Sequence record: MH791409.1
Source: Escherichia phage EcWhh-1
Direction: 5' to 3' (one strand)
DNA: 64,000 nucleotides
A model generated the notes under the pieces. The model was not told the origin of the DNA. It searched no databases and saw only the letters and a program-made list of their open reading frames with translations. Position 1 is the first letter of the stretch. The number at the start of each line of letters is the position of its first letter. The position numbers were made by a program, and so were the translations under genes. Positions 10,397 through 54,465 of this stretch are shown one piece after another.

Positions 10397-10425
10397 ATTA
10401 TAACATGAAGGGAGGGGGTGTAAAC
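10397..10425 (-). promoter_or_regulatory. early-type promoter
   Basis: GTTTAC (10425-10420), 17 nt, TATAAT (10402-10397) with TGt. Confidence 0.6.
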
Positions 10426-10658
10426 TACTTAAACACACCAAGTGGGACGCCAAACACTGCAATGTCGGCAGCCATGCCTAATGAGGATTGGGTATATGAA
10501 GTATAGGAGCTTTTTGATTCATAAGAGCTTTTTGTTTCTGGCTTCTCAGCTTCAATCTTAGGAGCTTTTGCCTGAATATTTTTTTGCTCGGTTTCCTTAC
10601 GAGCTTGTTTACGGTCGATATCCAACGCCGATGTAGGTATATTAGTTAGCCAATTCAT
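10425..10658 (-). CDS. hypothetical protein, 77 aa, Ser/Tyr-rich with hydrophobic tail
   Basis: The track start is TTG. ATG 10658 is TAATG-coupled to the upstream stop. Contains KSSYESKSSYTSYTQSS, then AADIAVFGVPLGVF. Confidence 0.5.
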   Translation of the reverse strand: MNWLTNIPTSALDIDRKQARKETEQKNIQAKAPKIEAEKPETKSSYESKSSYTSYTQSSLGMAADIAVFGVPLGVFK

Positions 10659-10846
10659 TATTTTACCCAAGGGGCCCAAGGTGGAGGGTCTTGATAGTAA
10701 GAAGCTAGGTCACTAAGGACCTCTTTAGGCAACTTAAAACCGTGCTTCTGTATAATCATATCAAGTTCGTTGACAAGGTCAACAGGCGGCTCCTGAGTTG
10801 TTTCAGGCTCAGGGTCCGGAATGACAAACATATCAAATAAGTCCAT
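10658..10846 (-). CDS. hypothetical protein, 62 aa
   Basis: TAATG coupling to the upstream gene at 10846. Acidic and Pro-rich. Confidence 0.5.
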   Translation of the reverse strand: MDLFDMFVIPDPEPETTQEPPVDLVNELDMIIQKHGFKLPKEVLSDLASYYQDPPPWAPWVK

Positions 10847-11337
10847 TAGTAACCACCGATAGGACCATAACCATACATACGAGCTCGTAACTTAGCATCA
10901 CGAATAGCTTCTTCGGTCGGGGTAAAACGCAAACCAATATCAAAGTGTTTCCAAATCTGACATTCTACCTCCGTCAGGTCTTCGACGGTAGAAATCAGAT
11001 AAGTACGACCTTTAAGACGTTCAGTAGCCATTCTATCTCTATCTTTATAGAAAATATCCATTGTTCCATCGGCATACGGGTCTGCCGGGTAACGATAGCC
11101 TTTGATATGCAAGGCTTGAGCCACACTAAAAGGGCACCCCTCAGCGACATCAACATTTTTGTTATGGTAAGCCTTCATCAGAATATTTTCTGGCAGCTTA
11201 ATATCTTTTAATCTTGTTTCTAACTGGGTTATAGAATTCATACCATTGTCGACAAAGATAAGACACGCCGTAGCATCATAAGGACGCGTTTGGCCTGATG
11301 AATCACGTACATGGAATTCGAGTTCATAGACTTTCAT
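10846..11337 (-). CDS. hypothetical protein, 163 aa (T4 mrh-like size and position)
   Basis: Coding-strand ORF. Any name would rest on synteny and size only. Confidence 0.5.
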
Positions 11338-11491
11338 TATGTTTTCCTCTTTTTAGTTTACCTACTAAAGGACCATCCGGAATTTTATTTTCCTGGATGT
11401 ATTTCTCGTTTTCTTCCATCATTTTACTACCAATTTTAAGAAGCAAATCCATTGCCTCTTTAGTACGTGCTTCAGCTTCTTCAATAGTCAT
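11324..11491 (-). CDS. hypothetical small protein, 55 aa
   Basis: Below cutoff. ATGA overlap with the upstream stop (11488-11491). The 3' end overlaps the next start. [31 protein letters not shown]... Confidence 0.45.
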
Positions 11492-11688
11492 GATTTATCC
11501 CCATAGATATCACGCATAATCCTAAGGGCCTCGCGTTCTAATTTCTTTTCGCGTTCGTCACGGATGCCTTTAAGAATCCATTCCTCTGATTCACGTTTCA
11601 TTTCTGCATTAGCTTGGTCTAACCAACCGTCATCAAGATAATCACCGGGACGGTCTAGCCAATCTTTAAGCCATGATAAAGGTTTCAT
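11488..11688 (-). CDS. hypothetical protein, 66 aa
   Basis: TAATG coupling at 11688. Charged and helical. Confidence 0.5.
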
Positions 11689-12023
11689 TAATCACACGAG
11701 CCGGACGATGAGTCACAGCTTCCTGAGTCAGAATAAGACGAATCGCCGGTCCAAGAACTAACGGCAGCCGCTACTACAATAGGAGTGGTATCAATATAAT
11801 TTTGCCTTTGCGCTCGCTCGTCTTTTAATTTTTCTAAACGGGCTTTTAATTCGTCGGCATTTAAGCTCGAAGCGTGAGACCCAACATTGCCTGCTTTTTC
11901 AGGCTGACGGATAACTTCTTCCATCATACCGTCGCCTACATAAACATATTCCTTCGGGCCTGAGATAGGAACTACACCTTCGCCAGGAGTGGTCTTGAAA
12001 AAATTCTTAAGCCACTGAATCAT
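11688..12023 (-). CDS. hypothetical protein, 111 aa, Ser/Cys-rich C-terminus
   Basis: Tail VSSWTGDSSYSDSGSCDSSSGSCD. 4-nt overlap with the upstream gene. Confidence 0.5.
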   Translation of the reverse strand: MIQWLKNFFKTTPGEGVVPISGPKEYVYVGDGMMEEVIRQPEKAGNVGSHASSLNADELKARLEKLKDERAQRQNYIDTTPIVVAAAVSSWTGDSSYSDSGSCDSSSGSCD

Positions 12024-12229
12024 AGGAAACCTCGTTTAAATTCAACTTTATCAATATCATCAGTCTCGTGACGGATTTCGGCGTTAAATTCGATAGAACC
12101 GTCTTCATGCATCATAAATGAATGGACAATAACTTCGGTATACCAAGGAGTATAGAAATACTTTTTCAATACGTGATTAGCGATAATTTCATCCAAAGTT
12201 TTATTTGGTTTAATCCAACGATTTAACAT
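12020..12229 (-). CDS. hypothetical protein, 69 aa
   Basis: Start moved to ATG 12229 (GAGGAG SD). The longer track ORF would run through its own promoter. Confidence 0.5.
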   Translation of the reverse strand: MLNRWIKPNKTLDEIIANHVLKKYFYTPWYTEVIVHSFMMHEDGSIEFNAEIRHETDDIDKVEFKRGFL

Positions 12230-12255
12230 AGTGTTCTCCTCTATAAGATACATCT

Positions 12256-12285
12256 ATCTTAACATGGCCTACTCGTAAAGTAAAC
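12256..12285 (-). promoter_or_regulatory. early-type promoter (weak -10)
   Basis: GTTTAC (12285-12280), 18 nt, TAAGAT (12261-12256). Lies directly downstream of the soc terminator. Confidence 0.4.
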
Positions 12286-12295
12286 TACTAAAACG

Positions 12296-12319
12296 AAAAA
12301 AGGAACCCGAAGGTTCCTT
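12296..12319 (-). terminator. rho-independent terminator after soc
   Basis: AAGGAACC-UUCG-GGUUCCUU followed by a U-run on the minus strand. Confidence 0.75.
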
Positions 12320-12323
12320 ATAA

Positions 12324-12557
12324 TTAAACAATATCGGTAGGCGTAAACATCGCCGCGTTCTTAGTTCGCCAATCGGCTGCATCAGTCACTACAGTAGTAT
12401 AGGCTGCAACGGCCGAAGGGAAAGTCTGATAATGAGCATTAGCAATACGATGCTCATTTGAATAGATTTCAAACGGAACTGAAACCTCAGTACCTTTAAC
12501 TTCTTTACCTTCACCAGCTGGATGCGTAAAGGTTTTGATATTAACGAAACCACCCAT
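12324..12557 (-). CDS. soc: small outer capsid protein Soc
   Basis: 77 aa. GFVNIKTF...ANAHYQTFPS... matches T4 and RB69 Soc as I recall them. An exact late promoter lies upstream. Confidence 0.9.
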   Translation of the reverse strand: MGGFVNIKTFTHPAGEGKEVKGTEVSVPFEIYSNEHRIANAHYQTFPSAVAAYTTVVTDAADWRTKNAAMFTPTDIV

Positions 12558-12588
12558 AATTAACTCCTTTGTTGTTTAATTACAGGTG

Positions 12589-12596
12589 TATTTATA
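12589..12596 (-). promoter_or_regulatory. late promoter TATAAATA for soc
   Basis: Exact TATAAATA on the minus strand, 31 nt upstream of ATG 12557 and just after the gene 56 stop. Confidence 0.7.
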
Positions 12597-12598
12597 AC

Positions 12599-13120
12599 TT
12601 AATAACCTCGGTCTTGACGAGCAAAGTTCTCGGCATTTTTCAGGTAATACAGTTTAAAGATTTCTTCAGCGGTCAGTCCAAGACCCTGGAACATATTCAG
12701 AACAAAGTGCAGAATATCAATCATTTCGAATTTAATTTCGAGCTGGTCTTCAGGAGACAAATCGTTAATCAGGGTTTCACGACGTTCAGCATGTTGAGCT
12801 TTCCAAGGCTTCCATACTGCAGATGCATCTTTTTCACCATTGCTCATACCACCAAGAGAAGTCAGAAGTTCACGGAATTCGTCATCAATATAATCTTTCT
12901 GGTTGCGAAGCCAATCGACAACTTCACCCGCAGTGGCCAAATCATCAGGATGACGATTATATTCAGGCTTATCTTTAGCTAAACGAACCTGCAAAGATTT
13001 CTGCATATCAAGCATAACCTGCAGAGGGTCTTTATCTTCGTGAATCAGAGCATTAAAATAAGCTTCTTCAGCTTTATCGGCACCGGCAATCAGTTGAGAA
13101 CATTCATTAAAATGAGCCAT
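12599..13120 (-). CDS. 56: dCTPase-dUTPase (dCTP pyrophosphatase)
   Basis: Start at ATG 13120 (MAHFNE, AAGGAAA SD). Strongly similar to T4 gp56 (PLQVMLDMQ, IDDEFRELLTSLG, EIFKLYYLKNAENFARQDRGY). Confidence 0.93.
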   Translation of the reverse strand: MAHFNECSQLIAGADKAEEAYFNALIHEDKDPLQVMLDMQKSLQVRLAKDKPEYNRHPDDLATAGEVVDWLRNQKDYIDDEFRELLTSLGGMSNGEKDASAVWKPWKAQHAERRETLINDLSPEDQLEIKFEMIDILHFVLNMFQGLGLTAEEIFKLYYLKNAENFARQDRGY

Positions 13121-13161
13121 TATATTTTTCCTTATCAATTCATTTGTTAGTAAGTTAGATA

Positions 13162-13187
13162 ATTATAAACTGCTAGATTAAAGCGAA
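13162..13187 (-). promoter_or_regulatory. MotA-type middle promoter for gene 56
   Basis: ttCGCTTTA (13187-13179), 11 nt, TATAAT (13167-13162). Confidence 0.45.
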
Positions 13188-13214
13188 TAAATATTAATTT
13201 AACAGGAGGATAAC

Positions 13215-13415
13215 ATGGGTAGTATTTTTTACCAAATCTGGAAATTGGCTGAAAAGAAAGACAAGAAAATGATGTTAGGTTTTCTTGCGCTAGACGTATT
13301 CCTTTGGAATCTTTTAGTAGTTCCTGTAGCCGCTAGCCAAGGGGTAATTTTACCAGCGGTTACAATGGAACACGTATTAAGCATAATTGGATTCTTTAGC
13401 GGAGTTCCTGTCTAA
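13215..13415 (+). CDS. hypothetical membrane protein, 66 aa (only credible plus-strand gene)
   Basis: AGGAGG SD 5 nt before ATG 13215. Sits in the 56-61 intergenic gap. Hydrophobic (LGFLALDVFLWNLLVVPVAA). AATAAATA late-like box at 13186-13193. Confidence 0.5.
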   Translation: MGSIFYQIWKLAEKKDKKMMLGFLALDVFLWNLLVVPVAASQGVILPAVTMEHVLSIIGFFSGVPV

Positions 13416-14440
13416 ATTTTAGAATATTTTGAAAGCCTCATTTTTGCCATTAACCCTTGGGCTATATTAGCTTTCATATACGCCAATATATCATTTATAT
13501 CAGCTTTATCTTTCATAACCATATCATTTATATCTTTAGAAGGCCATGGAGCCTTGTCCCAGAATAGGACCCTTTCGCCGGCATCAACTAATCGTTGCAT
13601 ACGCTTAATTGTGTCAGGATGACGGGGTTCATTGTCCATTACCCAAGCACGAGTTTCTTTACATGGAACCATAGCCAAGTCCAACGACCCACCAGTAATT
13701 GCTATTGCATTAGGTACGAATAATGAATCAATAGGACCTTCCATTACCCACACCAATTGACGTTCGTCAACTGTATCCATTCCATATATTTTTGTAGCTT
13801 GGTCATGAGCTTTTATTGTAATATATTTTTGTGGAGCATCTTTACGCAAGGCTCGGCCCTGAAAACTTTCAATTTGTTTATTCTTATTGAAAATTGGAAT
13901 AACCAAACGTGGTTCAGGCATTTCTTTGGAATAGGTCCCCGGATTAACAGAATTCACCAATGCAGGCCATTCTTTAGTAAACCATAACCGATTCCATTTA
14001 TTTTCAGGAATGCACCGCAGAGTTACATACTTAATAATAGGATGGTCCTTAGGCATTCTATCTAATCGTTCACAGAAATTAAGCTTTTCGATGACAGGCA
14101 TCTTAGCTTTAATTTTTTCAGATATCTCCACCTTAGGTGCAGCTTGTCTCCCAAACGATTGCTCTTTATGTTTCTCAAGAATATATTCGCGATATAAATC
14201 AGGCTCATATTCGTATAGGTACTTCTTAATTCCTGCCGAATAATCACAGTTAAAACAGTGTAGCATTACAGAGCCGTCATTGGCCGGATAGGCCCAGAAT
14301 CGAGCTTTGTTCTCATCCTTTTGGGAGTCGCCACATACACGACAACGACAGTTTAATTTAAAATCACTACCAGTTACTTGTCTGAATTTAGGTTGGTAAT
14401 TCAAGGCACGTACAGCAAATTCTCTATCGACATATGACAT
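13412..14440 (-). CDS. 61: DNA primase
   Basis: 342 aa. N-terminal Zn ribbon CRCRVCGDS...CFNC and a Toprim core. Same length and synteny as T4 gp61. Confidence 0.93.
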   Translation of the reverse strand: MSYVDREFAVRALNYQPKFRQVTGSDFKLNCRCRVCGDSQKDENKARFWAYPANDGSVMLHCFNCDYSAGIKKYLYEYEPDLYREYILEKHKEQSFGRQAAPKVEISEKIKAKMPVIEKLNFCERLDRMPKDHPIIKYVTLRCIPENKWNRLWFTKEWPALVNSVNPGTYSKEMPEPRLVIPIFNKNKQIESFQGRALRKDAPQKYITIKAHDQATKIYGMDTVDERQLVWVMEGPIDSLFVPNAIAITGGSLDLAMVPCKETRAWVMDNEPRHPDTIKRMQRLVDAGERVLFWDKAPWPSKDINDMVMKDKADINDILAYMKANIAQGLMAKMRLSKYSKI

Positions 14441-41632: not shown

Positions 41633-41930
41633 TTTCGTCTCGCTCAAATCGGTGTTTGCAATGGCGGCATTTATATCGAAGATTACTGGTTTGCCAATGG
41701 ACCAATTGAACCTGTTCTGTGCCACACTTAGGACAGTTAGGAACATTCTTAGAAGCTTGTTCTCGTCGTGCGACCATAGCCATTACAGCATCCCAATTAA
41801 CGGCATCACCATAATCATCACAACCATGAATTTTACCGACCAATTCAACTTCAACATCCTCGGCTTTAATAAATTTCAATAAACCGGTATTAGATGCTGA
41901 AGCAATATCTTCAGCTAAACGTTGTTTCAT
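41619..41930 (-). CDS. zinc-ribbon protein, 103 aa
   Basis: CPKCGTEQ...CRHCKHRF. 4-nt overlap with the upstream gene. Confidence 0.55.
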
Positions 41931-42937
41931 TTCAGCAGCTCCAGAGCCTGTTCAAGACGGTCTAAACGATTGGTAGACTCTTCCCAAAGTTTCTTGGCAG
42001 CGGTATATTGCCCGGTCAGTTTTTTGTTAATAGCCAAGGCATCTTTATACGCTTTTTCTAAGGCAACGATTTCCGGTAACTTGGATTTAGTAATTGGTGT
42101 ATGGGCCATGATAGGGCTGTTCAAGTCGTTAATCAAGTCTTCTAATGTAGCAGGCTCTTTATCAGTATTCACAATTTCCTCACATTTTTCTTGGTAAATT
42201 TCAGCGTCAGTTTTTGGAACGGTACATTTGATTTCGCGAACTGTTACTAAGACCTCATATCCTTTCCAGCCTAAGCGGTGTTTAACTTCTTGGGTCTCAT
42301 ATTTCTCTACTGTATCCATCAAAGCTAGGGCTTGTTCGATAGTATTCAAGGTATCGTAAGCAATATCTTGATACTTTACAACTTCCGCATCATCTTTAGG
42401 TTTCCTATTAGGTGACCAAATAACAGAAATAATAGCTTTTCCTTTATAACTATTTGTTTTAATCATGCAATTAGCCATCGGGTGAATAGTACGACAATCA
42501 CCGGAAACTATAGTTTTAGAGGCCGCTTTGAGAATTAATGCAGAGTTAGCCTTGAATTCGCTAACCCAACGTTGCGGAAATAAACTACTAGGGTCCATAC
42601 CTTTAATTTTGATATAACCTTTTATGGTATCACCAAACCATTTGTAGCTAACAACGTGGCTAGAACCCGGATATTTCTCTTTACCGAACTCAGAAAGGAT
42701 GTCCTTATTGACCAGTCGAGAAAGCAGTCGAGAACCTTTAAATGTATCTACGATATCAGGAATAAACAAACGACCCGCTATCTTTTCGATTTCAGCTTTG
42801 AAACAGCGCGATAATGCATCATCAATTTGGTCGACCCATTTATTGATATTAGAAACTATTACCACATATGGGGTTAATGGAGGGGTGTTGGCAGTGATAT
42901 ACGTAGTAAAGGCATTGATGTATTCAGTACGAGTCAT
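41927..42937 (-). CDS. hypothetical protein, 336 aa, C-terminal coiled coil
   Basis: Own early promoter. Tail ...[22 protein letters not shown]. Confidence 0.6.
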   Translation of the reverse strand: MTRTEYINAFTTYITANTPPLTPYVVIVSNINKWVDQIDDALSRCFKAEIEKIAGRLFIPDIVDTFKGSRLLSRLVNKDILSEFGKEKYPGSSHVVSYKWFGDTIKGYIKIKGMDPSSLFPQRWVSEFKANSALILKAASKTIVSGDCRTIHPMANCMIKTNSYKGKAIISVIWSPNRKPKDDAEVVKYQDIAYDTLNTIEQALALMDTVEKYETQEVKHRLGWKGYEVLVTVREIKCTVPKTDAEIYQEKCEEIVNTDKEPATLEDLINDLNSPIMAHTPITKSKLPEIVALEKAYKDALAINKKLTGQYTAAKKLWEESTNRLDRLEQALELLK

Positions 42938-42963
42938 GATATTCTCCTCAAGTTGATAGAAAG

Positions 42964-42993
42964 ATTATACTCCATCCATCCTTGGATGTAAAC
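42964..42993 (-). promoter_or_regulatory. early-type promoter
   Basis: GTTTAC (42993-42988), 18 nt, TATAAT (42969-42964). Confidence 0.55.
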
Positions 42994-42994
42994 A

Positions 42995-43870
42995 TTATTT
43001 TAGAGCTAATACTGCAGCGCGGAGCTTGTCACGCTGGAGTTCCATGTTCTTGATGCGAATCAATACGTCTTGGATACTCTTTTTCTCATCTTCGATCTGG
43101 CCGTTTAAACGGTGGATTGATTCCTGGAGATGGTCCTCATGATACTTCTCGATAGGTTTCATCGTAGGGTTAGTAACCACCATAGAATTATCAGGTGTAA
43201 TTTTCCAATGATACGGTTTGGAATTGAATGGACTCGGTACAGCCGTGGTTTTGAATTTGTCATAGGCTGCATACTGGCCTACACTGTCACATGATACTGC
43301 AGAGGTAGAGATACGTCGTTCCATTTGTGGGTCCTTTTGTTGGGATTGGTAAGGGGCATAAGACAAAAGATATTCGCGAGTTAGTTTAATTCTGATGTAT
43401 ACTGCATCAGCCAGCCCGGAACATTCTGCGTACTCGTCAGTAGTAACCTTATATGATTCTACAGCCTTAATACGAGCCATTGCTTCTCTGAATAAGGTTT
43501 CAAATGCTTCACGAAGGGCCTTATTACCTTTTGAGGTAGGACGGAAACGAACTTGAACACCATCATCCAAAATATTAATGACCAGGTTACGAGCTGTAAA
43601 ATTAATATTTTTGATATTGACAGGAACCGTAGAAATACGCCCTGCAGTAGCCAATAGGTCTTTGATATTAGCTCGTAATGTTGCACCAAACAGATGGGCC
43701 GGGCTACGGCAATAATCATTCAAAGAGCTGATGTAAGTTCCTTTACGGCCTACACCATAAGTATAATTACCATTACAAATATGACCAAAGTCAGCTAGGC
43801 GGTCAATAGCGATACGACGAGTCGTGTCATGGTCATAGATGGAATATTCTTTACGTGTTTTAATGTTCAT
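42995..43870 (-). CDS. hypothetical protein, 291 aa, C-terminal coiled coil
   Basis: ATG 43870 lies 1 nt after the upstream TAA (the track start lies further upstream, inside the neighbouring gene). Tail ...IKNMELQRDKLRAAVLALK. Confidence 0.55.
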   Translation of the reverse strand: MNIKTRKEYSIYDHDTTRRIAIDRLADFGHICNGNYTYGVGRKGTYISSLNDYCRSPAHLFGATLRANIKDLLATAGRISTVPVNIKNINFTARNLVINILDDGVQVRFRPTSKGNKALREAFETLFREAMARIKAVESYKVTTDEYAECSGLADAVYIRIKLTREYLLSYAPYQSQQKDPQMERRISTSAVSCDSVGQYAAYDKFKTTAVPSPFNSKPYHWKITPDNSMVVTNPTMKPIEKYHEDHLQESIHRLNGQIEDEKKSIQDVLIRIKNMELQRDKLRAAVLALK

Positions 43871-43871
43871 A

Positions 43872-44087
43872 TTAAAGTCCAAATAATTTTTCATAGAGTT
43901 TAGCAATAGGCCATAGAACTAGCATACATAGCCAGGCAAAGCAAAATACCGGCCATACGAATGTAATGAATACTGCATCATAGCTTGATTCAATTTCAAC
44001 CGGGTTCCATGCACCGGACTTATGAACAAATAATGCAGTAATAAATCCTATCACAAGATATCCAATAATAAAACTGATAATTTCCAT
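43872..44087 (-). CDS. membrane protein, 71 aa
   Basis: Two predicted TM segments (IISFIIGYLVIGFITALFV; FVWPVFCFAWLCMLVLWPI). Confidence 0.55.
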   Translation of the reverse strand: MEIISFIIGYLVIGFITALFVHKSGAWNPVEIESSYDAVFITFVWPVFCFAWLCMLVLWPIAKLYEKLFGL

Positions 44088-44089
44088 AA

Positions 44090-44938
44090 TTAATCCTTAA
44101 GAAGATTTAGGATATCGATATATTTTTGACGTTCAGCCTTAGCTTTAGCATTCAGACCAGAGAGTCGGAAAATCTCATCATCTTGTTGTTGGATTGTAAC
44201 ATTCAAGCAAGTAAGCAAATTGCTAAAATACTCAATCTGGGCTTGATGCTTCTCATTGCTGCGCACTGGCACAGGTTCCGGTTTAGGAGCTTGTTCTGAA
44301 GGCTCTTCAGTCAGGTCTTTAATTTGGTACAGTTTAATACGCTGACCCGCTCCAGTTTCGGCATCACCAAAACTAAGAACACCATGCCGTTCTAATTCAG
44401 ACAGGGCTAAGCGCAGGTGGAACTTCCAGTTGTCATATTGACAACCACTATAAGTGGAAACAATATACCCACCATGTTCAGGTATTTGACTTTTAATAAT
44501 ATTAAAGACAATCCAATCGCCTGAACCATTGGTCTTAAAGGTCATTTGTTTATCAAGACCTTTTGCAAGGCGAGCGCCAAGAGCCAGTAGACGCCGTTGG
44601 TTGGCATGAAGGTCTTGAACAACTTCGTCAAATGACATCGCCGGGATTAAACGACCATAAAGGTCGTAGCCTTTGTTATAATTTTTAAGAATAATTTTGG
44701 CATTAGCACGAGACAACATACCTGTTTTACGAAGAGTTTTCATGACTCGGTCTTCTAACGTAAACGAACCTTTAGTCTTGTCAAAGATTTTAGTGAAGTC
44801 ATCTTTAACAGTACAAACATTGAACTTGTCCCACATCATATATAGAACCCTTTCAACCACTTCATTAGAACTCGGAATAAAACCAAAATTAATAACTTTT
44901 TTAACTTCAGAACGAATTTGATTAATTGCCTGTGACAT
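44090..44938 (-). CDS. hypothetical protein, 282 aa, C-terminal coiled coil
   Basis: Shares its leader and MSQAI start with 37043-37372. Tail ...AKAERQKYIDILNLLKD. Confidence 0.6.
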   Translation of the reverse strand: MSQAINQIRSEVKKVINFGFIPSSNEVVERVLYMMWDKFNVCTVKDDFTKIFDKTKGSFTLEDRVMKTLRKTGMLSRANAKIILKNYNKGYDLYGRLIPAMSFDEVVQDLHANQRRLLALGARLAKGLDKQMTFKTNGSGDWIVFNIIKSQIPEHGGYIVSTYSGCQYDNWKFHLRLALSELERHGVLSFGDAETGAGQRIKLYQIKDLTEEPSEQAPKPEPVPVRSNEKHQAQIEYFSNLLTCLNVTIQQQDDEIFRLSGLNAKAKAERQKYIDILNLLKD

Positions 44939-44975
44939 AATAATTTCCTCAGTAAGTAATTAAGAACCTAGAACC

Positions 44976-45002
44976 ATTATACCATCCTTGGTATAAAGCG
45001 TT
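44976..45002 (-). promoter_or_regulatory. MotA-type middle promoter (variant box)
   Basis: aaCGCTTTA (45002-44994), 12 nt, TATAAT (44981-44976). Confidence 0.45.
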
Positions 45003-45526
45003 TATGCGAGAACCGTCTTTAAACGCTCTTCAAATTTCTGAAGCAGAGCTTGGCGTTCAGCTCGTTGTGATTTGTACTGCTCGATACGACCTGAAGTGAG
45101 GGCGTACTGTTCGTTTACTGATTCCCGCATGAATTCAGGAATCTCTTTACACGCTTTGATTTCGTCAAACTTATCAATAACCGCTTGTTCCTCGGCAATC
45201 AGATTATCGAAATAAGCGATATCAGATTTAACATTTGCCAGGTCGGATTCAGTAGGCATTAAACGTTTGTTACGTTCAGCTTGATAAGCTTGATTGTTTT
45301 CACGGCTCCAGTAAAGAATACGTTTTTTGTTAGTGTTTTTATAGAGCTCTACAATACCAACTGAATCGATGATAGCAATCCAGTTCCAACGGCTTTTGTA
45401 AATCTCTCCTCCAGATACGGTAATCTCATTACCACAAGCAACGTCGTTAAAGAACTTGCTTTGTTTTTCAGATTTGAAATTACCATTATTAAAATTAATC
45501 AGTGAAAAAATATCTTTAGCGTTCAT
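45002..45526 (-). CDS. hypothetical protein, 174 aa, C-terminal coiled coil
   Basis: Own early promoter. Tail ...RAERQALLQKFEERLKTVLA. Confidence 0.6.
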   Translation of the reverse strand: MNAKDIFSLINFNNGNFKSEKQSKFFNDVACGNEITVSGGEIYKSRWNWIAIIDSVGIVELYKNTNKKRILYWSRENNQAYQAERNKRLMPTESDLANVKSDIAYFDNLIAEEQAVIDKFDEIKACKEIPEFMRESVNEQYALTSGRIEQYKSQRAERQALLQKFEERLKTVLA

Positions 45527-45552
45527 GATAACCTCCAGTAGTTGATAGGTCT

Positions 45553-45581
45553 ATAGTATCATTTCTACTGGAGATGTAAAC
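45553..45581 (-). promoter_or_regulatory. early-type promoter
   Basis: GTTTAC (45581-45576), 17 nt, TACTAT (45558-45553), leader AGACCTATCAAC. Confidence 0.6.
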
Positions 45582-45583
45582 AA

Positions 45584-45925
45584 CTAATAGAAACTTTTTT
45601 CACCGGATTGACCACTAAACCAAGCGGATTGGGTGTTCTCTTTCCGTTGGTGTTTAATACGAATAAGGTATTCATTCCTGATGGCGCAGAGTTCACCTCG
45701 GAAGTCGCCTGCCAACTTTACCTGCTTACGGTCTAGATTTATTAAGGCCTGAGTCTTAGCGGCCAAGGCCAGTCTCTTGTAGTCTCCTTCTTCACAATCG
45801 GTTTTATAAACCTTTTCGGCGAATTTGTATTTAAATTCATTATCATAGTCCTCGACGGACTGTTTCATGGCATTAGAGTACTTCAACTCTGCTTTTATAA
45901 GGTCGTAACTAAATTGTTCGAACAT
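45584..45925 (-). CDS. hypothetical protein, 113 aa
   Basis: Coding-strand ORF. No domain recognised. Confidence 0.5.
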   Translation of the reverse strand: MFEQFSYDLIKAELKYSNAMKQSVEDYDNEFKYKFAEKVYKTDCEEGDYKRLALAAKTQALINLDRKQVKLAGDFRGELCAIRNEYLIRIKHQRKENTQSAWFSGQSGEKSFY

Positions 45926-45935
45926 AATTTCACCT

Positions 45936-46916
45936 TTATTTCAGAAGTGTAACTTCAGCGATTTCGTTCCAGTCATTTTTATCAGTGGCAATGAAGTCCG
46001 CCAGATAAAGAGCTGTACGTAATGATACGTTACGAAGACGAGATACATTAGCCTTCATCCATGCTAAAGCTTGATAAGTCTCAGCATCAGTCAGACCTCG
46101 ATTTTGCATCATATCAGTGGACAGGATAACGTCTTCAACACGAACCATAATCTCTTCGTTCGAGTGAACTCCGAGGTCTAAGTAAACTGAACGAGATACT
46201 AAAGCCTGGAGGTGTGGAGCAAGTTTAGTTCCACGCTCTAATTCACGGTCAATATCAACGTTGGTGATGAACACGATGGTGCCTTCGTATTCGAATTCTT
46301 TATCGATATTTTTATCATCGAGGTAAGAACTTGAAGTGCTCCAGCACACTTTACGTTTTTCACCAGTATCCAATGCTGCTTTTAACAGGTTCAGGATATC
46401 CATATCAGAGAATACATCAACATCATCGATAAGAAGAACACTATTAGGGCCGCGGTTATTCCAAAGCTGCTCGTAAAGACCGATTCCACTAATCTTTCCG
46501 TTGATTGATTTATATTCGATAGTTTCATTTTCGTGGGCATTTTGTAATGCTTTATCCAAAGAATACGTTTTACCAATACCTGCGGCACCAGAGATGATAA
46601 GGGAACGAATTTTACCATCGATGATTCCGTTGGTCATCATGTTCATTACTTTAAAACGTTTGTTGATGCGATGTTTCATTTCTTCAGCGGATTCAGTAAT
46701 CACTACAGGAGCTTCAGTACCTTCCATTTCAACGTCACATTTGAACACCCATACACCACGTTCAACACCATCAATCTGTACGAATACCTTGCCATCACCG
46801 AGGTGAGCTTCGGATTCATGAATTTTATTTGGGAACCAGGTTTTACCTGAACTCATGAACGTACCAGAGATTTCATTACCGCGATAGATACCTTTGTTGA
46901 TTTTGATAGTTAACAT
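45936..46916 (-). CDS. AAA+ ATPase
   Basis: Start at ATG 46916 (AAGGAG SD). Walker A IISGAAGIGKTYS, Walker B VLLIDDVD. Confidence 0.7.
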   Translation of the reverse strand: MLTIKINKGIYRGNEISGTFMSSGKTWFPNKIHESEAHLGDGKVFVQIDGVERGVWVFKCDVEMEGTEAPVVITESAEEMKHRINKRFKVMNMMTNGIIDGKIRSLIISGAAGIGKTYSLDKALQNAHENETIEYKSINGKISGIGLYEQLWNNRGPNSVLLIDDVDVFSDMDILNLLKAALDTGEKRKVCWSTSSSYLDDKNIDKEFEYEGTIVFITNVDIDRELERGTKLAPHLQALVSRSVYLDLGVHSNEEIMVRVEDVILSTDMMQNRGLTDAETYQALAWMKANVSRLRNVSLRTALYLADFIATDKNDWNEIAEVTLLK

Positions 46917-46951
46917 TTTATTCTCCTTCACTCAGTAGATTTGATAGGTCT

Positions 46952-47312: not shown

Positions 47313-47334
47313 AAAAAAGGCCCGAAGGCCTTTT
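47313..47334 (-). terminator. rho-independent terminator
   Basis: AAAAGGCC-UUCG-GGCCUUUU plus a U-run. Abuts the TGA at 47336-47338. Confidence 0.7.
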
Positions 47335-54006: not shown

Positions 54007-54465
54007 TTAAAGATAGATTACTTTCGTGCTGGTTTTACCTTCTAAACGTTTAGAGTTAACAAATGCCATACGACATTTTAATGAATATCCTTTATCAGGA
54101 TGTTTACGATCTACGGTCATACCCAACCATAAGGTTTTATCGGTAATCTCGAGACGCAGCGGACGATACACCTTACCTGGGACAATTTCGGATTCTACAT
54201 CAGGCAGAGGTTCCTGGATTAAGAATTCATGGATTTCTTTAACATGGTTATGGAGTTGCTTGAATAAAGCAAAAACGTATTTTTCGTCGATTTCACGTTG
54301 GATAGCACGGTCCAACAAATGATTGGAGTACTTAATAAAGAAGGCTGGGACTCCGCTCTTAATGGCGGCTTTTTTGATGGACGCATTCAGTTCACGGAAT
54401 TCGGTTTCAAACTGACGACGTAATTTGTTGCGGCGGATGAATACTTCTGAATTAATTTCTGACAT
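54007..54465 (-). CDS. regB: RegB endoribonuclease
   Basis: 152 aa. EVFIRRNKLRRQFE...HLLDRAIQREIDEKYVF matches T4 RegB. Confidence 0.93.
   Translation of the reverse strand: MSEINSEVFIRRNKLRRQFETEFRELNASIKKAAIKSGVPAFFIKYSNHLLDRAIQREIDEKYVFALFKQLHNHVKEIHEFLIQEPLPDVESEIVPGKVYRPLRLEITDKTLWLGMTVDRKHPDKGYSLKCRMAFVNSKRLEGKTSTKVIYL

Follow-up and report, generated by a model that had tools for sequence, protein, structure and literature searches.

Tail-bearing proteins of the nrdC.4-nrdC.8 region of Escherichia phage EcWhh-1 as putative diverged tandem paralogues

The locus and the families of its proteins

The sequence analysed is a window of 64,000 nucleotides (nt) from Escherichia phage EcWhh-1 (MH791409.1), and all positions refer to this whole window. 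The phage is a T4-like myovirus of the genus Dhakavirus, with 94% nucleotide identity to Dhakavirus genomes at this locus, and bases 41900-45600 have 92-95% nucleotide identity to phages KIT01, QL01, WG01 and JS10. The locus studied is the nrdC.4-nrdC.8 stretch, part of the non-essential early-gene block, and every gene here is on the minus strand. We analysed three proteins of this block with a C-terminal heptad tail, named p336, p291 and p282 after their lengths in amino acids (aa), and two neighbours, p174 and p71. The JS10 record names nrdC.4, nrdC.6 and nrdC.8 at the matching locus. From JS10 and T4 annotation, the transcription order is nrdC.11, nrdC.10, a nrdC.9-like gene, nrdC.8, nrdC.6, a 71-aa gene, DUF7235, nrdC.4, nrdC.2, nrdC.1 and nrdC. 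The genes of interest are as follows:

41927-42937, minus strand: p336, orthologue of T4 nrdC.4 (PF26897 / phrog_1435)
42995-43870, minus strand: p291, DUF7235, diverged homologue of T4 nrdC.5 (291 aa counted from the ATG)
43872-44087, minus strand: p71, small predicted membrane protein, not a family member (phrog_7899 at 7.7e-33; hydrophobic sequence)
44090-44938, minus strand: p282, orthologue of T4 nrdC.6 (PF26899 / phrog_2257)
45002-45526, minus strand: p174, orthologue of T4 nrdC.8, an adjacent early gene outside the family
45584-45925, minus strand: nrdC.9-like DUF7203 protein (JS10/T4 annotation)
45936-46931, minus strand: nrdC.10, an AAA-type nucleoside triphosphatase (NTPase; JS10/T4 annotation)

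An earlier, sequence-only reading had described four consecutive genes for proteins of 336, 291, 282 and 174 aa. Its coordinates and lengths were correct. The genes are not strictly consecutive, because p71 sits between the 282-aa and the 291-aa genes. The start of p291 agrees with the family alignment, which begins MNIKTRKEY.

The p336 protein is 42% identical to T4 nrdC.4 over its full length (residues 1-336), and its match to phrog_1435 (4.5e-145) spans positions 1-334 of 334. A precomputed PF26897 assignment is present on each of its 38 homologues. The p282 protein is 41% identical to T4 nrdC.6 over its full length and matches phrog_2257 at 2.6e-121; its homologues carry PF26899. Full-length matches and synteny place p336 in the nrdC.4 family and p282 in the nrdC.6 family. 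The p291 protein is only about 23% identical to T4 nrdC.5. It scores 389.9 bits against PF23882 (DUF7235; cut-off 30), residues 1-291 aligning with profile positions 9-307 of 307. The comparison of p291 with T4 nrdC.5 by hhalign gave 99.3% probability (E 1.2e-20, 262 columns), T4 nrdC.5 was also recovered by a heads-only hidden Markov model (HMM) search, and p291 is located between nrdC.6 and nrdC.4, the same array position as T4 nrdC.5. The p174 protein is 67% identical to T4 nrdC.8 and matches phrog_2274 at 5.8e-100.

All four proteins fall in PHROG families of unassigned function. In the local copy of Pfam, DUF7235 was the sole match among the family proteins. The NCBIfam search returned nothing for these proteins, and neither p174 nor the profiles of the three families matched any PDB sequence. 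No thioredoxin or other enzyme family was matched in Pfam, NCBIfam, PHROGs or PDB sequences. Many GenBank records call homologues of nrdC.1-nrdC.10 "thioredoxin", once for six genes in a row. Because no thioredoxin family was matched, this label seems to have been carried over from the name of the nearby nrdC gene.

Head cores and C-terminal tails

Pairwise BLASTP among the proteins detected no similarity, and the sequence-only reading had considered their bodies unrelated. This did not hold for the three large proteins, whose heads are homologous by profile-profile comparison. Heads were taken as sequences minus the last 62 residues. Three profiles were rebuilt, and only members with homology independently supported by HMMER or hhalign were merged. 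S34 combines nrdC.3 and nrdC.4, the heads of which gave 97.9% (E 6e-13) when compared alone by hhalign; nrdC.3 is also found when HMMER is run with the nrdC.4 head. S5 combines DUF7235, T4 nrdC.5 and a Mosigvirus-like group. S6 combines nrdC.6 and distant nrdC.6-like proteins, three of which are representatives obtained when 1.84 billion proteins were searched exhaustively with HMMER. The comparisons of heads by hhalign were as follows:

S34 with S6: probability 91.8%, E 7.2e-7
S34 with S5: probability 85.5%, E 5.7e-6
S5 with S6: probability 25%, E 7.6e-4, the weakest link

In the controls, reversed heads gave E values of at least 0.44, all reversed-profile comparisons gave at least 0.037, and unrelated real families of the same loci (nrdC.8 and a tail-less 260-aa family) gave at least 0.058. 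A composite hub profile of all tail-bearing positional equivalents from other genera had linked all families at 87-95%. It was discarded because subgroup analysis showed that it was a mixture of nrdC.6-like and nrdC.5-like proteins.

The three pairwise head alignments by hhalign were mutually consistent on two motifs, the first of which is located in p336 as follows:

42686-42733, minus strand: motif 1 of p336, aa 69-84 (SRLLSRLVNKDILSEF), paired with p291 13-28 and p282 73-88

Motif 1 reads DHDTTRRIAIDRLADF in residues 13-28 of p291 and GMLSRANAKIILKNYN in residues 73-88 of p282. In motif 2, residues 128-141 of p336 (FKANSALILKAASK) align with 65-79 of p291 (LRANIKDLLATAGRI) and 110-124 of p282 (LHANQRRLLALGARL). 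The motif helices can be written (S/T)R..A..IL..(F/Y)(G/N)K and.AN...LLA.(G)A(R/K)(L/I). When the nrdC.6 profile was searched by plain HMMER against all open reading frames (ORFs) of the window, the best non-self hits were p291 (E 0.0028) and p336 (E 0.015). No further family copy was found in the window, a weak hit at 54007-54465 being unrelated.

The p174 protein gave an hhalign probability of at most 3.7% with every family. By these comparisons p174 (nrdC.8) is an unrelated neighbour with neither the shared head nor the tail. In other genera (loci L013-L023), a family of about 260 aa, ending ...ATFEHAKDD.THSFFKRPSSV, is conserved about 700-1200 bp upstream of the tail-bearing gene. This family, near the single-copy gene, was tried as a tail-less paralogue and proved unrelated (hhalign E at least 0.15).

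On the evidence of the alignments, we conclude that p336, p291 and p282 represent diverged tandem paralogues of one putative superfamily, which in T4 would comprise nrdC.3, nrdC.4, nrdC.5 and nrdC.6. Because the heads of p336, p291 and p282 share a core, the array would have arisen by divergence of tandem paralogues and not by placing different heads on a common handle. This paralogy and the shared architecture appear not to have been described in the literature found; the genes and families are already catalogued as domains of unknown function (DUFs).

Single-chain models of p291 and p282 were made with AlphaFold2 (AF2). The modelled core of p291 consists of a helix (57-75), two strands (96-100 and 104-109), a helix (117-132) and two strands (137-144 and 157-163). 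Residues 172-239 are disordered and are followed by the terminal helix. The p282 model (mean predicted local distance difference test score, pLDDT, 78.8) has a helical domain at 3-130, a β-β-α-β-β unit at 145-204 and a disordered segment at 208-228. Both models, of which that of p291 is weak, follow the same helix-β-β-α-β-β order, then a disordered linker and a terminal helix or helices. The spacing is also alike, with 21 residues between the motif helix and β1, 8-9 between β2 and the next helix, and 5 between that helix and β3. In a Foldseek search against BFVD, p282 matched only members of its own family and proteins of other genera that resemble nrdC.6. The best match was JS10 nrdC.6 (E 5e-33); proteins with this fold were also detected in two phages of other hosts, Pectobacterium phage PM2 (E 2e-6) and Acinetobacter phage Acj61 (E 7e-4).

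The tails of the three proteins lie at the following positions:

41930-42076, minus strand: C-terminal heptad tail of p336, aa 288-336, the best heptad window of the protein, with a/d residues ILYANLYAWSLLLL
42998-43153, minus strand: C-terminal helix of p291, aa 240-291, ending KLRAAVLALK (AF2 and heptad p=0.0005)
44093-44257, minus strand: C-terminal tail of p282, aa 228-282, ending KYIDILNLLKD, its two helices separated at the conserved RLSGLN

All four proteins had been thought to end in a heptad tail. Periodicity, register and conservation agree with this for p336, p291 and p282, but not for p174. The 3.5-residue hydrophobic periodicity of the last 49 residues was compared with shuffles at the family level. 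The signal was significant for nrdC.4 (p=0.0005), DUF7235 (p=0.0005), nrdC.6 (p=0.01) and the T4-type nrdC.3 (p=0.003), and the tail of the nrdC.8 family gave no signal (p=0.46). A single unbroken register of about seven heptads fits p336, p291 and p282, and its frame is equal when counted from the C-terminus: d=L/Y at -9, a=L/V at -5, d=L at -2 and K at -1. The p174 tail fits this register poorly (6.5/14), and the sole heptad-like stretch of p174 is internal (aa 89-123). With a crude single-sequence heptad scorer, only p291 passed clearly and the p336 tail failed. In the AF2 models, the p291 tail is a single helix at 240-290 (pLDDT about 58-89, mostly above 75), and the p282 tail forms helices at 228-258 and 264-281 (pLDDT 61-75).

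The terminal consensus of the three tails is L-x-x-[A/I]-[ILV]-x-x-L-K. Of the 178 window ORFs, two (p291 and p336) end in the pattern L..[AI][ILVM]..L[KN]. Among 822 ORFs of related loci there were 18 with this ending, 16 of them within these families. The p282 protein fits the relaxed terminal motif only (Y..I.L..LLKD). An octamer DILNLLK(D/A), which occurs in the p282 tail and again inside nrdC.10, was treated as chance. Conservation of the tail against that of the head was 0.83 vs 0.65 for nrdC.4, 0.81 vs 0.74 for DUF7235 and 0.80 vs 0.79 for nrdC.6, and the nrdC.4 tail is the most conserved part of its family. In p291, 11 of the 12 residues at 266-277 are invariant, non-core heptad positions included. 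Such near-invariance at non-core positions hints at a possible further use of the tail as a binding surface.

Of the tails, only those of the nrdC.5 and nrdC.6 types could be shown to be homologous in sequence (hhalign 96.6%, E 5.4e-10). Three bridging proteins from the exhaustive HMMER search (P0199, P0201 and P0202) resemble nrdC.6 in both core and tail, and DUF7235 in the tail. A tail HMM was made from these two types of tail. With it, the single-copy homologues in other genera scored 11-21 bits, the match lying at the extreme C-terminus, against 6.0 for the best reversed decoy. The same HMM gave 7.0 bits for nrdC.3, which is marginal, and -0.8 bits for p174. The p336 tail matches the others in position, heptad register and the last ~10 residues only. 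Given the homology of the heads, the simplest reading for p336 as well would be that its tail diverged from a common one. Within one genome the tails are family-specific and not homogenised. Through these tails the proteins may oligomerise.

Promoters, copy number and rearrangements

Three of the genes had been credited with promoters of their own. Early-type promoter-like sites are present upstream of p336 and p174, but p282 has only an extended -10 with a poor -35. All promoter calls are consensus matches only:

42964-42992, minus strand: early-type promoter-like site upstream of p336, GTTTACA-17-TATAAT, 11/12 consensus matches
44976-45000, minus strand: candidate extended -10 upstream of p282 (TGGTATAAT) with a poor -35, read from the sequence
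45553-45580, minus strand: early-type promoter-like site upstream of p174, TTTACA-16-TACTAT with TG, a consensus match

The p282 promoter is the weakest of the three calls because the consensus scan did not list it. The string CCAAGGATGG, just ahead of the -10, is common to the p336 and p282 promoter regions (42938-42994 and 44939-45001, minus strand). GGAG, the motif cut by T4 RegB, is present in the Shine-Dalgarno regions of p336 and p174. RegB is an endoribonuclease acting on early phage mRNAs, and it cuts the intergenic GGAG of T4 nrdC.8 with moderate cleavage (PMC1702504). A perfect 8-bp GC-rich hairpin, AAAAGGCCCGAAGGCCTTTT, at 47315-47334 scores as a terminator on both strands and lies directly after the nrdC.11 gene (end 47336).

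The start of p71 is 2 nt past the stop of p282, and its own stop is 1 nt ahead of the ATG of p291. The p282, p71 and p291 genes thus abut and look like one co-transcribed operon. A 69-aa relative of p71 (26% identity, E 2e-6; 13005-13214 of locus L016) is encoded immediately upstream of the only tail-bearing gene in phages of the Kosakonia/Enterobacter group. The pairing of a small membrane protein with a tail-bearing gene may be conserved.

Identity to T4 is 23-42% for p336, p291 and p282, as against 67-77% for the neighbours nrdC.8 and nrdC.10 (77% for nrdC.10). Copy number among T4-like phages is 1-4. One copy, adjoining nrdC.2, is present in the Serratia CHI14/Erwinia, Citrobacter CF1/Moon and Kosakonia/Enterobacter phage groups. 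Three copies are present in the window and in a group about 82% identical in nrdC.10, and four in T4; the Tequatrovirus and Dhakavirus genomes examined have 3-4. IMG/VR scans with the three family alignments added no genera beyond those already found. The nrdC.6 family is small, since the exhaustive HMMER search with its profile yielded just 15 representatives.

Rearranged genes are common among the relatives. Gene 094 of Salmonella phage Manna (5113-6150 of locus L002) is a natural in-frame chimera of a nrdC.6 head and a nrdC.4 tail, with nrdC.5 deleted. It joins aa 1-258 of nrdC.6 (93% identical to T4) to residues 251-333 of nrdC.4 (96% identical). The junction is a deletion at a microhomology of ~12 nt, GATGATGAAATT (QQYDDEI vs QQKCDEI), and is unique among 553 records. 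The microhomology falls outside the shared tail segment, and the C-terminal 83 residues come from nrdC.4. In the T4 reference (NC_000866.4, 52066-52893), nrdC.6 ends ...FNKQIEELIFLFNNMMMKFSDYLD, and the conserved tail NISIQQYDDEIFRLSGLSSKAKSEREKLIKIVDLLKS is intact downstream in another frame. Relative to nearly all relatives (296 aa), the T4 reference gene carries a 1-nt frameshift or a sequencing error. The nrdC.6 homologue of Shigella phage Sf25 (P0175, 378 aa) has an 83-aa internal tandem duplication of T4 residues 177-259, and its first copy ends exactly where the T4 reference leaves the frame.

Escherichia phage vB_EcoM_005 (155 kb; 10400-13706 of locus L007) has in-frame internal deletions in nrdC.8 (141 aa vs 174), DUF7235 (268 aa vs 297) and nrdC.4, the tail of which is shortened. 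These deletions may reflect genome reduction or an assembly artefact. On a metagenomic contig of 1873 bp, the protein P0048 (336 aa) has a C-terminal half, including the tail, of DUF7235 type (55% identical to p291 157-291), after ~200 unrelated N-terminal residues. Its head may truly have been replaced, or two sequences may have been joined in assembly; the contig is too short to distinguish these cases.

Interpretation and comparison with known systems

The T4 relative of p291 is linked to defence. T4 clones without nrdC.5 fail to plate on ECOR17 or on MG1655 with its dsr1, and plasmid-borne T4 nrdC.5 restores plating on Dsr1 cells (Srikant et al. 2022, eLife, PMC9391042). Since anti-Dsr1 activity has been published for T4 NrdC.5, p336, p291 and p282 may plausibly have an anti-defence role. 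The earlier proposal of a diversifying host-interaction or anti-defence module agrees with the low identity to T4, the copy number of 1-4 and the anti-Dsr1 effect of T4 NrdC.5. It had also been considered that the proteins could be plain orthologues of T4 nrdC.x genes with known unrelated roles. They are plain orthologues, but only nrdC.5 has a published role. Our literature search found nothing describing the tail, the paralogy or the function of nrdC.3, nrdC.4 or nrdC.6.

In this study, we believe that the best explanation, with a probability of roughly 0.6, is a tandem paralogue array of proteins composed of a head, a linker and a heptad tail, which would be early accessory proteins of counter-defence or host takeover. 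In each member of the superfamily, a head with a conserved core would be connected by a disordered linker to a heptad helix of ~50 residues at the C-terminus. The proteins would be made early in infection and would serve as accessory host-takeover or counter-defence factors. The diverging head would recognise a host target, and the tail would form a coiled coil, giving an oligomeric protein, and possibly also offer a conserved binding surface. The target of the nrdC.5 branch would be the SIR2-domain defence protein Dsr1, as for T4, and the other paralogues would have other targets.

Several observations weigh against this explanation. The head homology rests on profile probabilities of 85-92%, and 25% for nrdC.5/nrdC.6, values short of decisive. 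Confidence in the p291 model is low, with a mean pLDDT of 56.6, and a Foldseek search with this model against BFVD returned nothing at E <= 0.001. The p282 search of the viral structures in BFVD returned no member of the nrdC.3, nrdC.4 or nrdC.5 families. The nrdC.4 tail scores 2.9 bits with the tail HMM, below the best decoy, so that no profile-level homology is detectable for it. The tail models are AF2 monomers, which cannot show oligomerisation. The functional reading depends on extrapolation from a single experiment, done with a protein 23% identical to p291.

The sequence-only reading had explained the locus by unrelated effector heads independently joined to one coiled-coil tail, which would dock to a shared partner or build a hetero-oligomer of the four proteins. 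The failure of BLASTP to relate the heads agrees with this, and so do the conserved tails with their common terminal motif and register. The invariant non-core positions at 266-277 of p291 (11/12) fit a specific binding surface, the Manna gene 094 shows a nrdC.6 head on a nrdC.4 tail, and the nrdC.6 profile meets its distant relatives only from position ~105 on, the N-terminal regions being variable. We nevertheless consider this explanation unlikely. The picture of a variable head on a common tail does not fit p336, p291 and p282, which share a core in consistent alignments (E 7.2e-7 to 7.6e-4) and, in the models of p291 and p282, the same secondary-structure topology, nor p174, which has neither tail nor head. 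The tails are family-specific, and the nrdC.4 tail is unrecognised by the nrdC.5/6 tail profile. The Manna chimera is a single case among 553 records and arose by a microhomology deletion outside the shared tail segment. Hetero-oligomerisation is not required in several genera, because these have a single copy.

The proteins could also be ordinary structural or scaffold parts of phage nucleotide or DNA metabolism, with generic coiled coils and no link to defence. The genes do sit between nrdC (glutaredoxin) and nrdC.10 (AAA-type NTPase)/nrdC.11 (nucleotidyltransferase), and many GenBank records carry the "thioredoxin" label. Against this, no enzyme family was matched in Pfam, NCBIfam, PHROGs or PDB sequences. 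The genes diverge fast, vary in copy number and show natural deletions, chimeras and frameshifts, as is typical of accessory genes that can be dispensed with. T4 clones without nrdC.5 are viable and lose only plating on the Dsr1 host (PMC9391042). We regard a metabolic role as very improbable. It is possible, though doubtful, that the proteins are defence triggers, decoys, superinfection-exclusion factors or host-takeover factors acting on host physiology, the anti-Dsr1 effect of NrdC.5 being indirect. The mechanism of NrdC.5 against Dsr1 is not stated in the accessible part of PMC9391042, and PDB sequence searches gave no solved structure of any family member. The early-type promoter-like sites and the small membrane-protein gene in a putative operon with two family genes also agree with such a role. 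Nothing specific speaks against it; it shares its evolutionary evidence with the counter-defence array and differs from it only in the molecular target. A bolder form of the paralogue-array explanation, which we hold to be improbable, is that the superfamily would be an expandable set of coiled-coil-oligomerised inhibitors with one immune target per paralogue, the tail serving as a common docking surface for a host factor or a mixed paralogue complex.

T4 NrdC.5 is one of few proteins known to counter sirtuin-type (Dsr1) defence. If the counter-defence array is correct, 3-4 uncharacterised early genes per genome in T4, JS98-type and the related phages examined would be counter-defence candidates, the two core motifs and the tail would be targets for mutagenesis, and the copy number of 1-4 would be a readable marker of the arms race in therapy phages. 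The "thioredoxin" label on nrdC genes is corrected by these results, and the gain is incremental.

Among the closest known systems is T4 NrdC.5 itself. It is like p291 in homology, array position and tail type (...QR.KL..A...L[KN]). The p291 protein differs from it in its identity of ~23% and in having ~45 fewer N-terminal residues, so that T4 residue 57 pairs with p291 14. T4 nrdC.4 and nrdC.6 are the orthologues of p336 and p282, with 41-42% identity over the full length and a conserved tail. Compared with the T4 array, the window is without nrdC.3 and has p71 inside the array, whereas T4 has a 133-aa nrdC.7 upstream of nrdC.6. DSAD1 of phage SPbeta, which inhibits DSR2, is a possible functional analogue that blocks a SIR2-domain NADase defence. 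Its phage lineage and target (DSR2) are different, and the likeness to nrdC.5 lies in the role only. The T4 "anti-TA (toxin-antitoxin) island" (dmd, tifA, adfA/61.2) is similar in its clustered, non-essential, fast-evolving early genes of host range (PMC9391042). The genes of the island are not described as mutual paralogues or reported to have a terminal helix in common, whereas the nrdC array would be one ancestral gene expanded in tandem.

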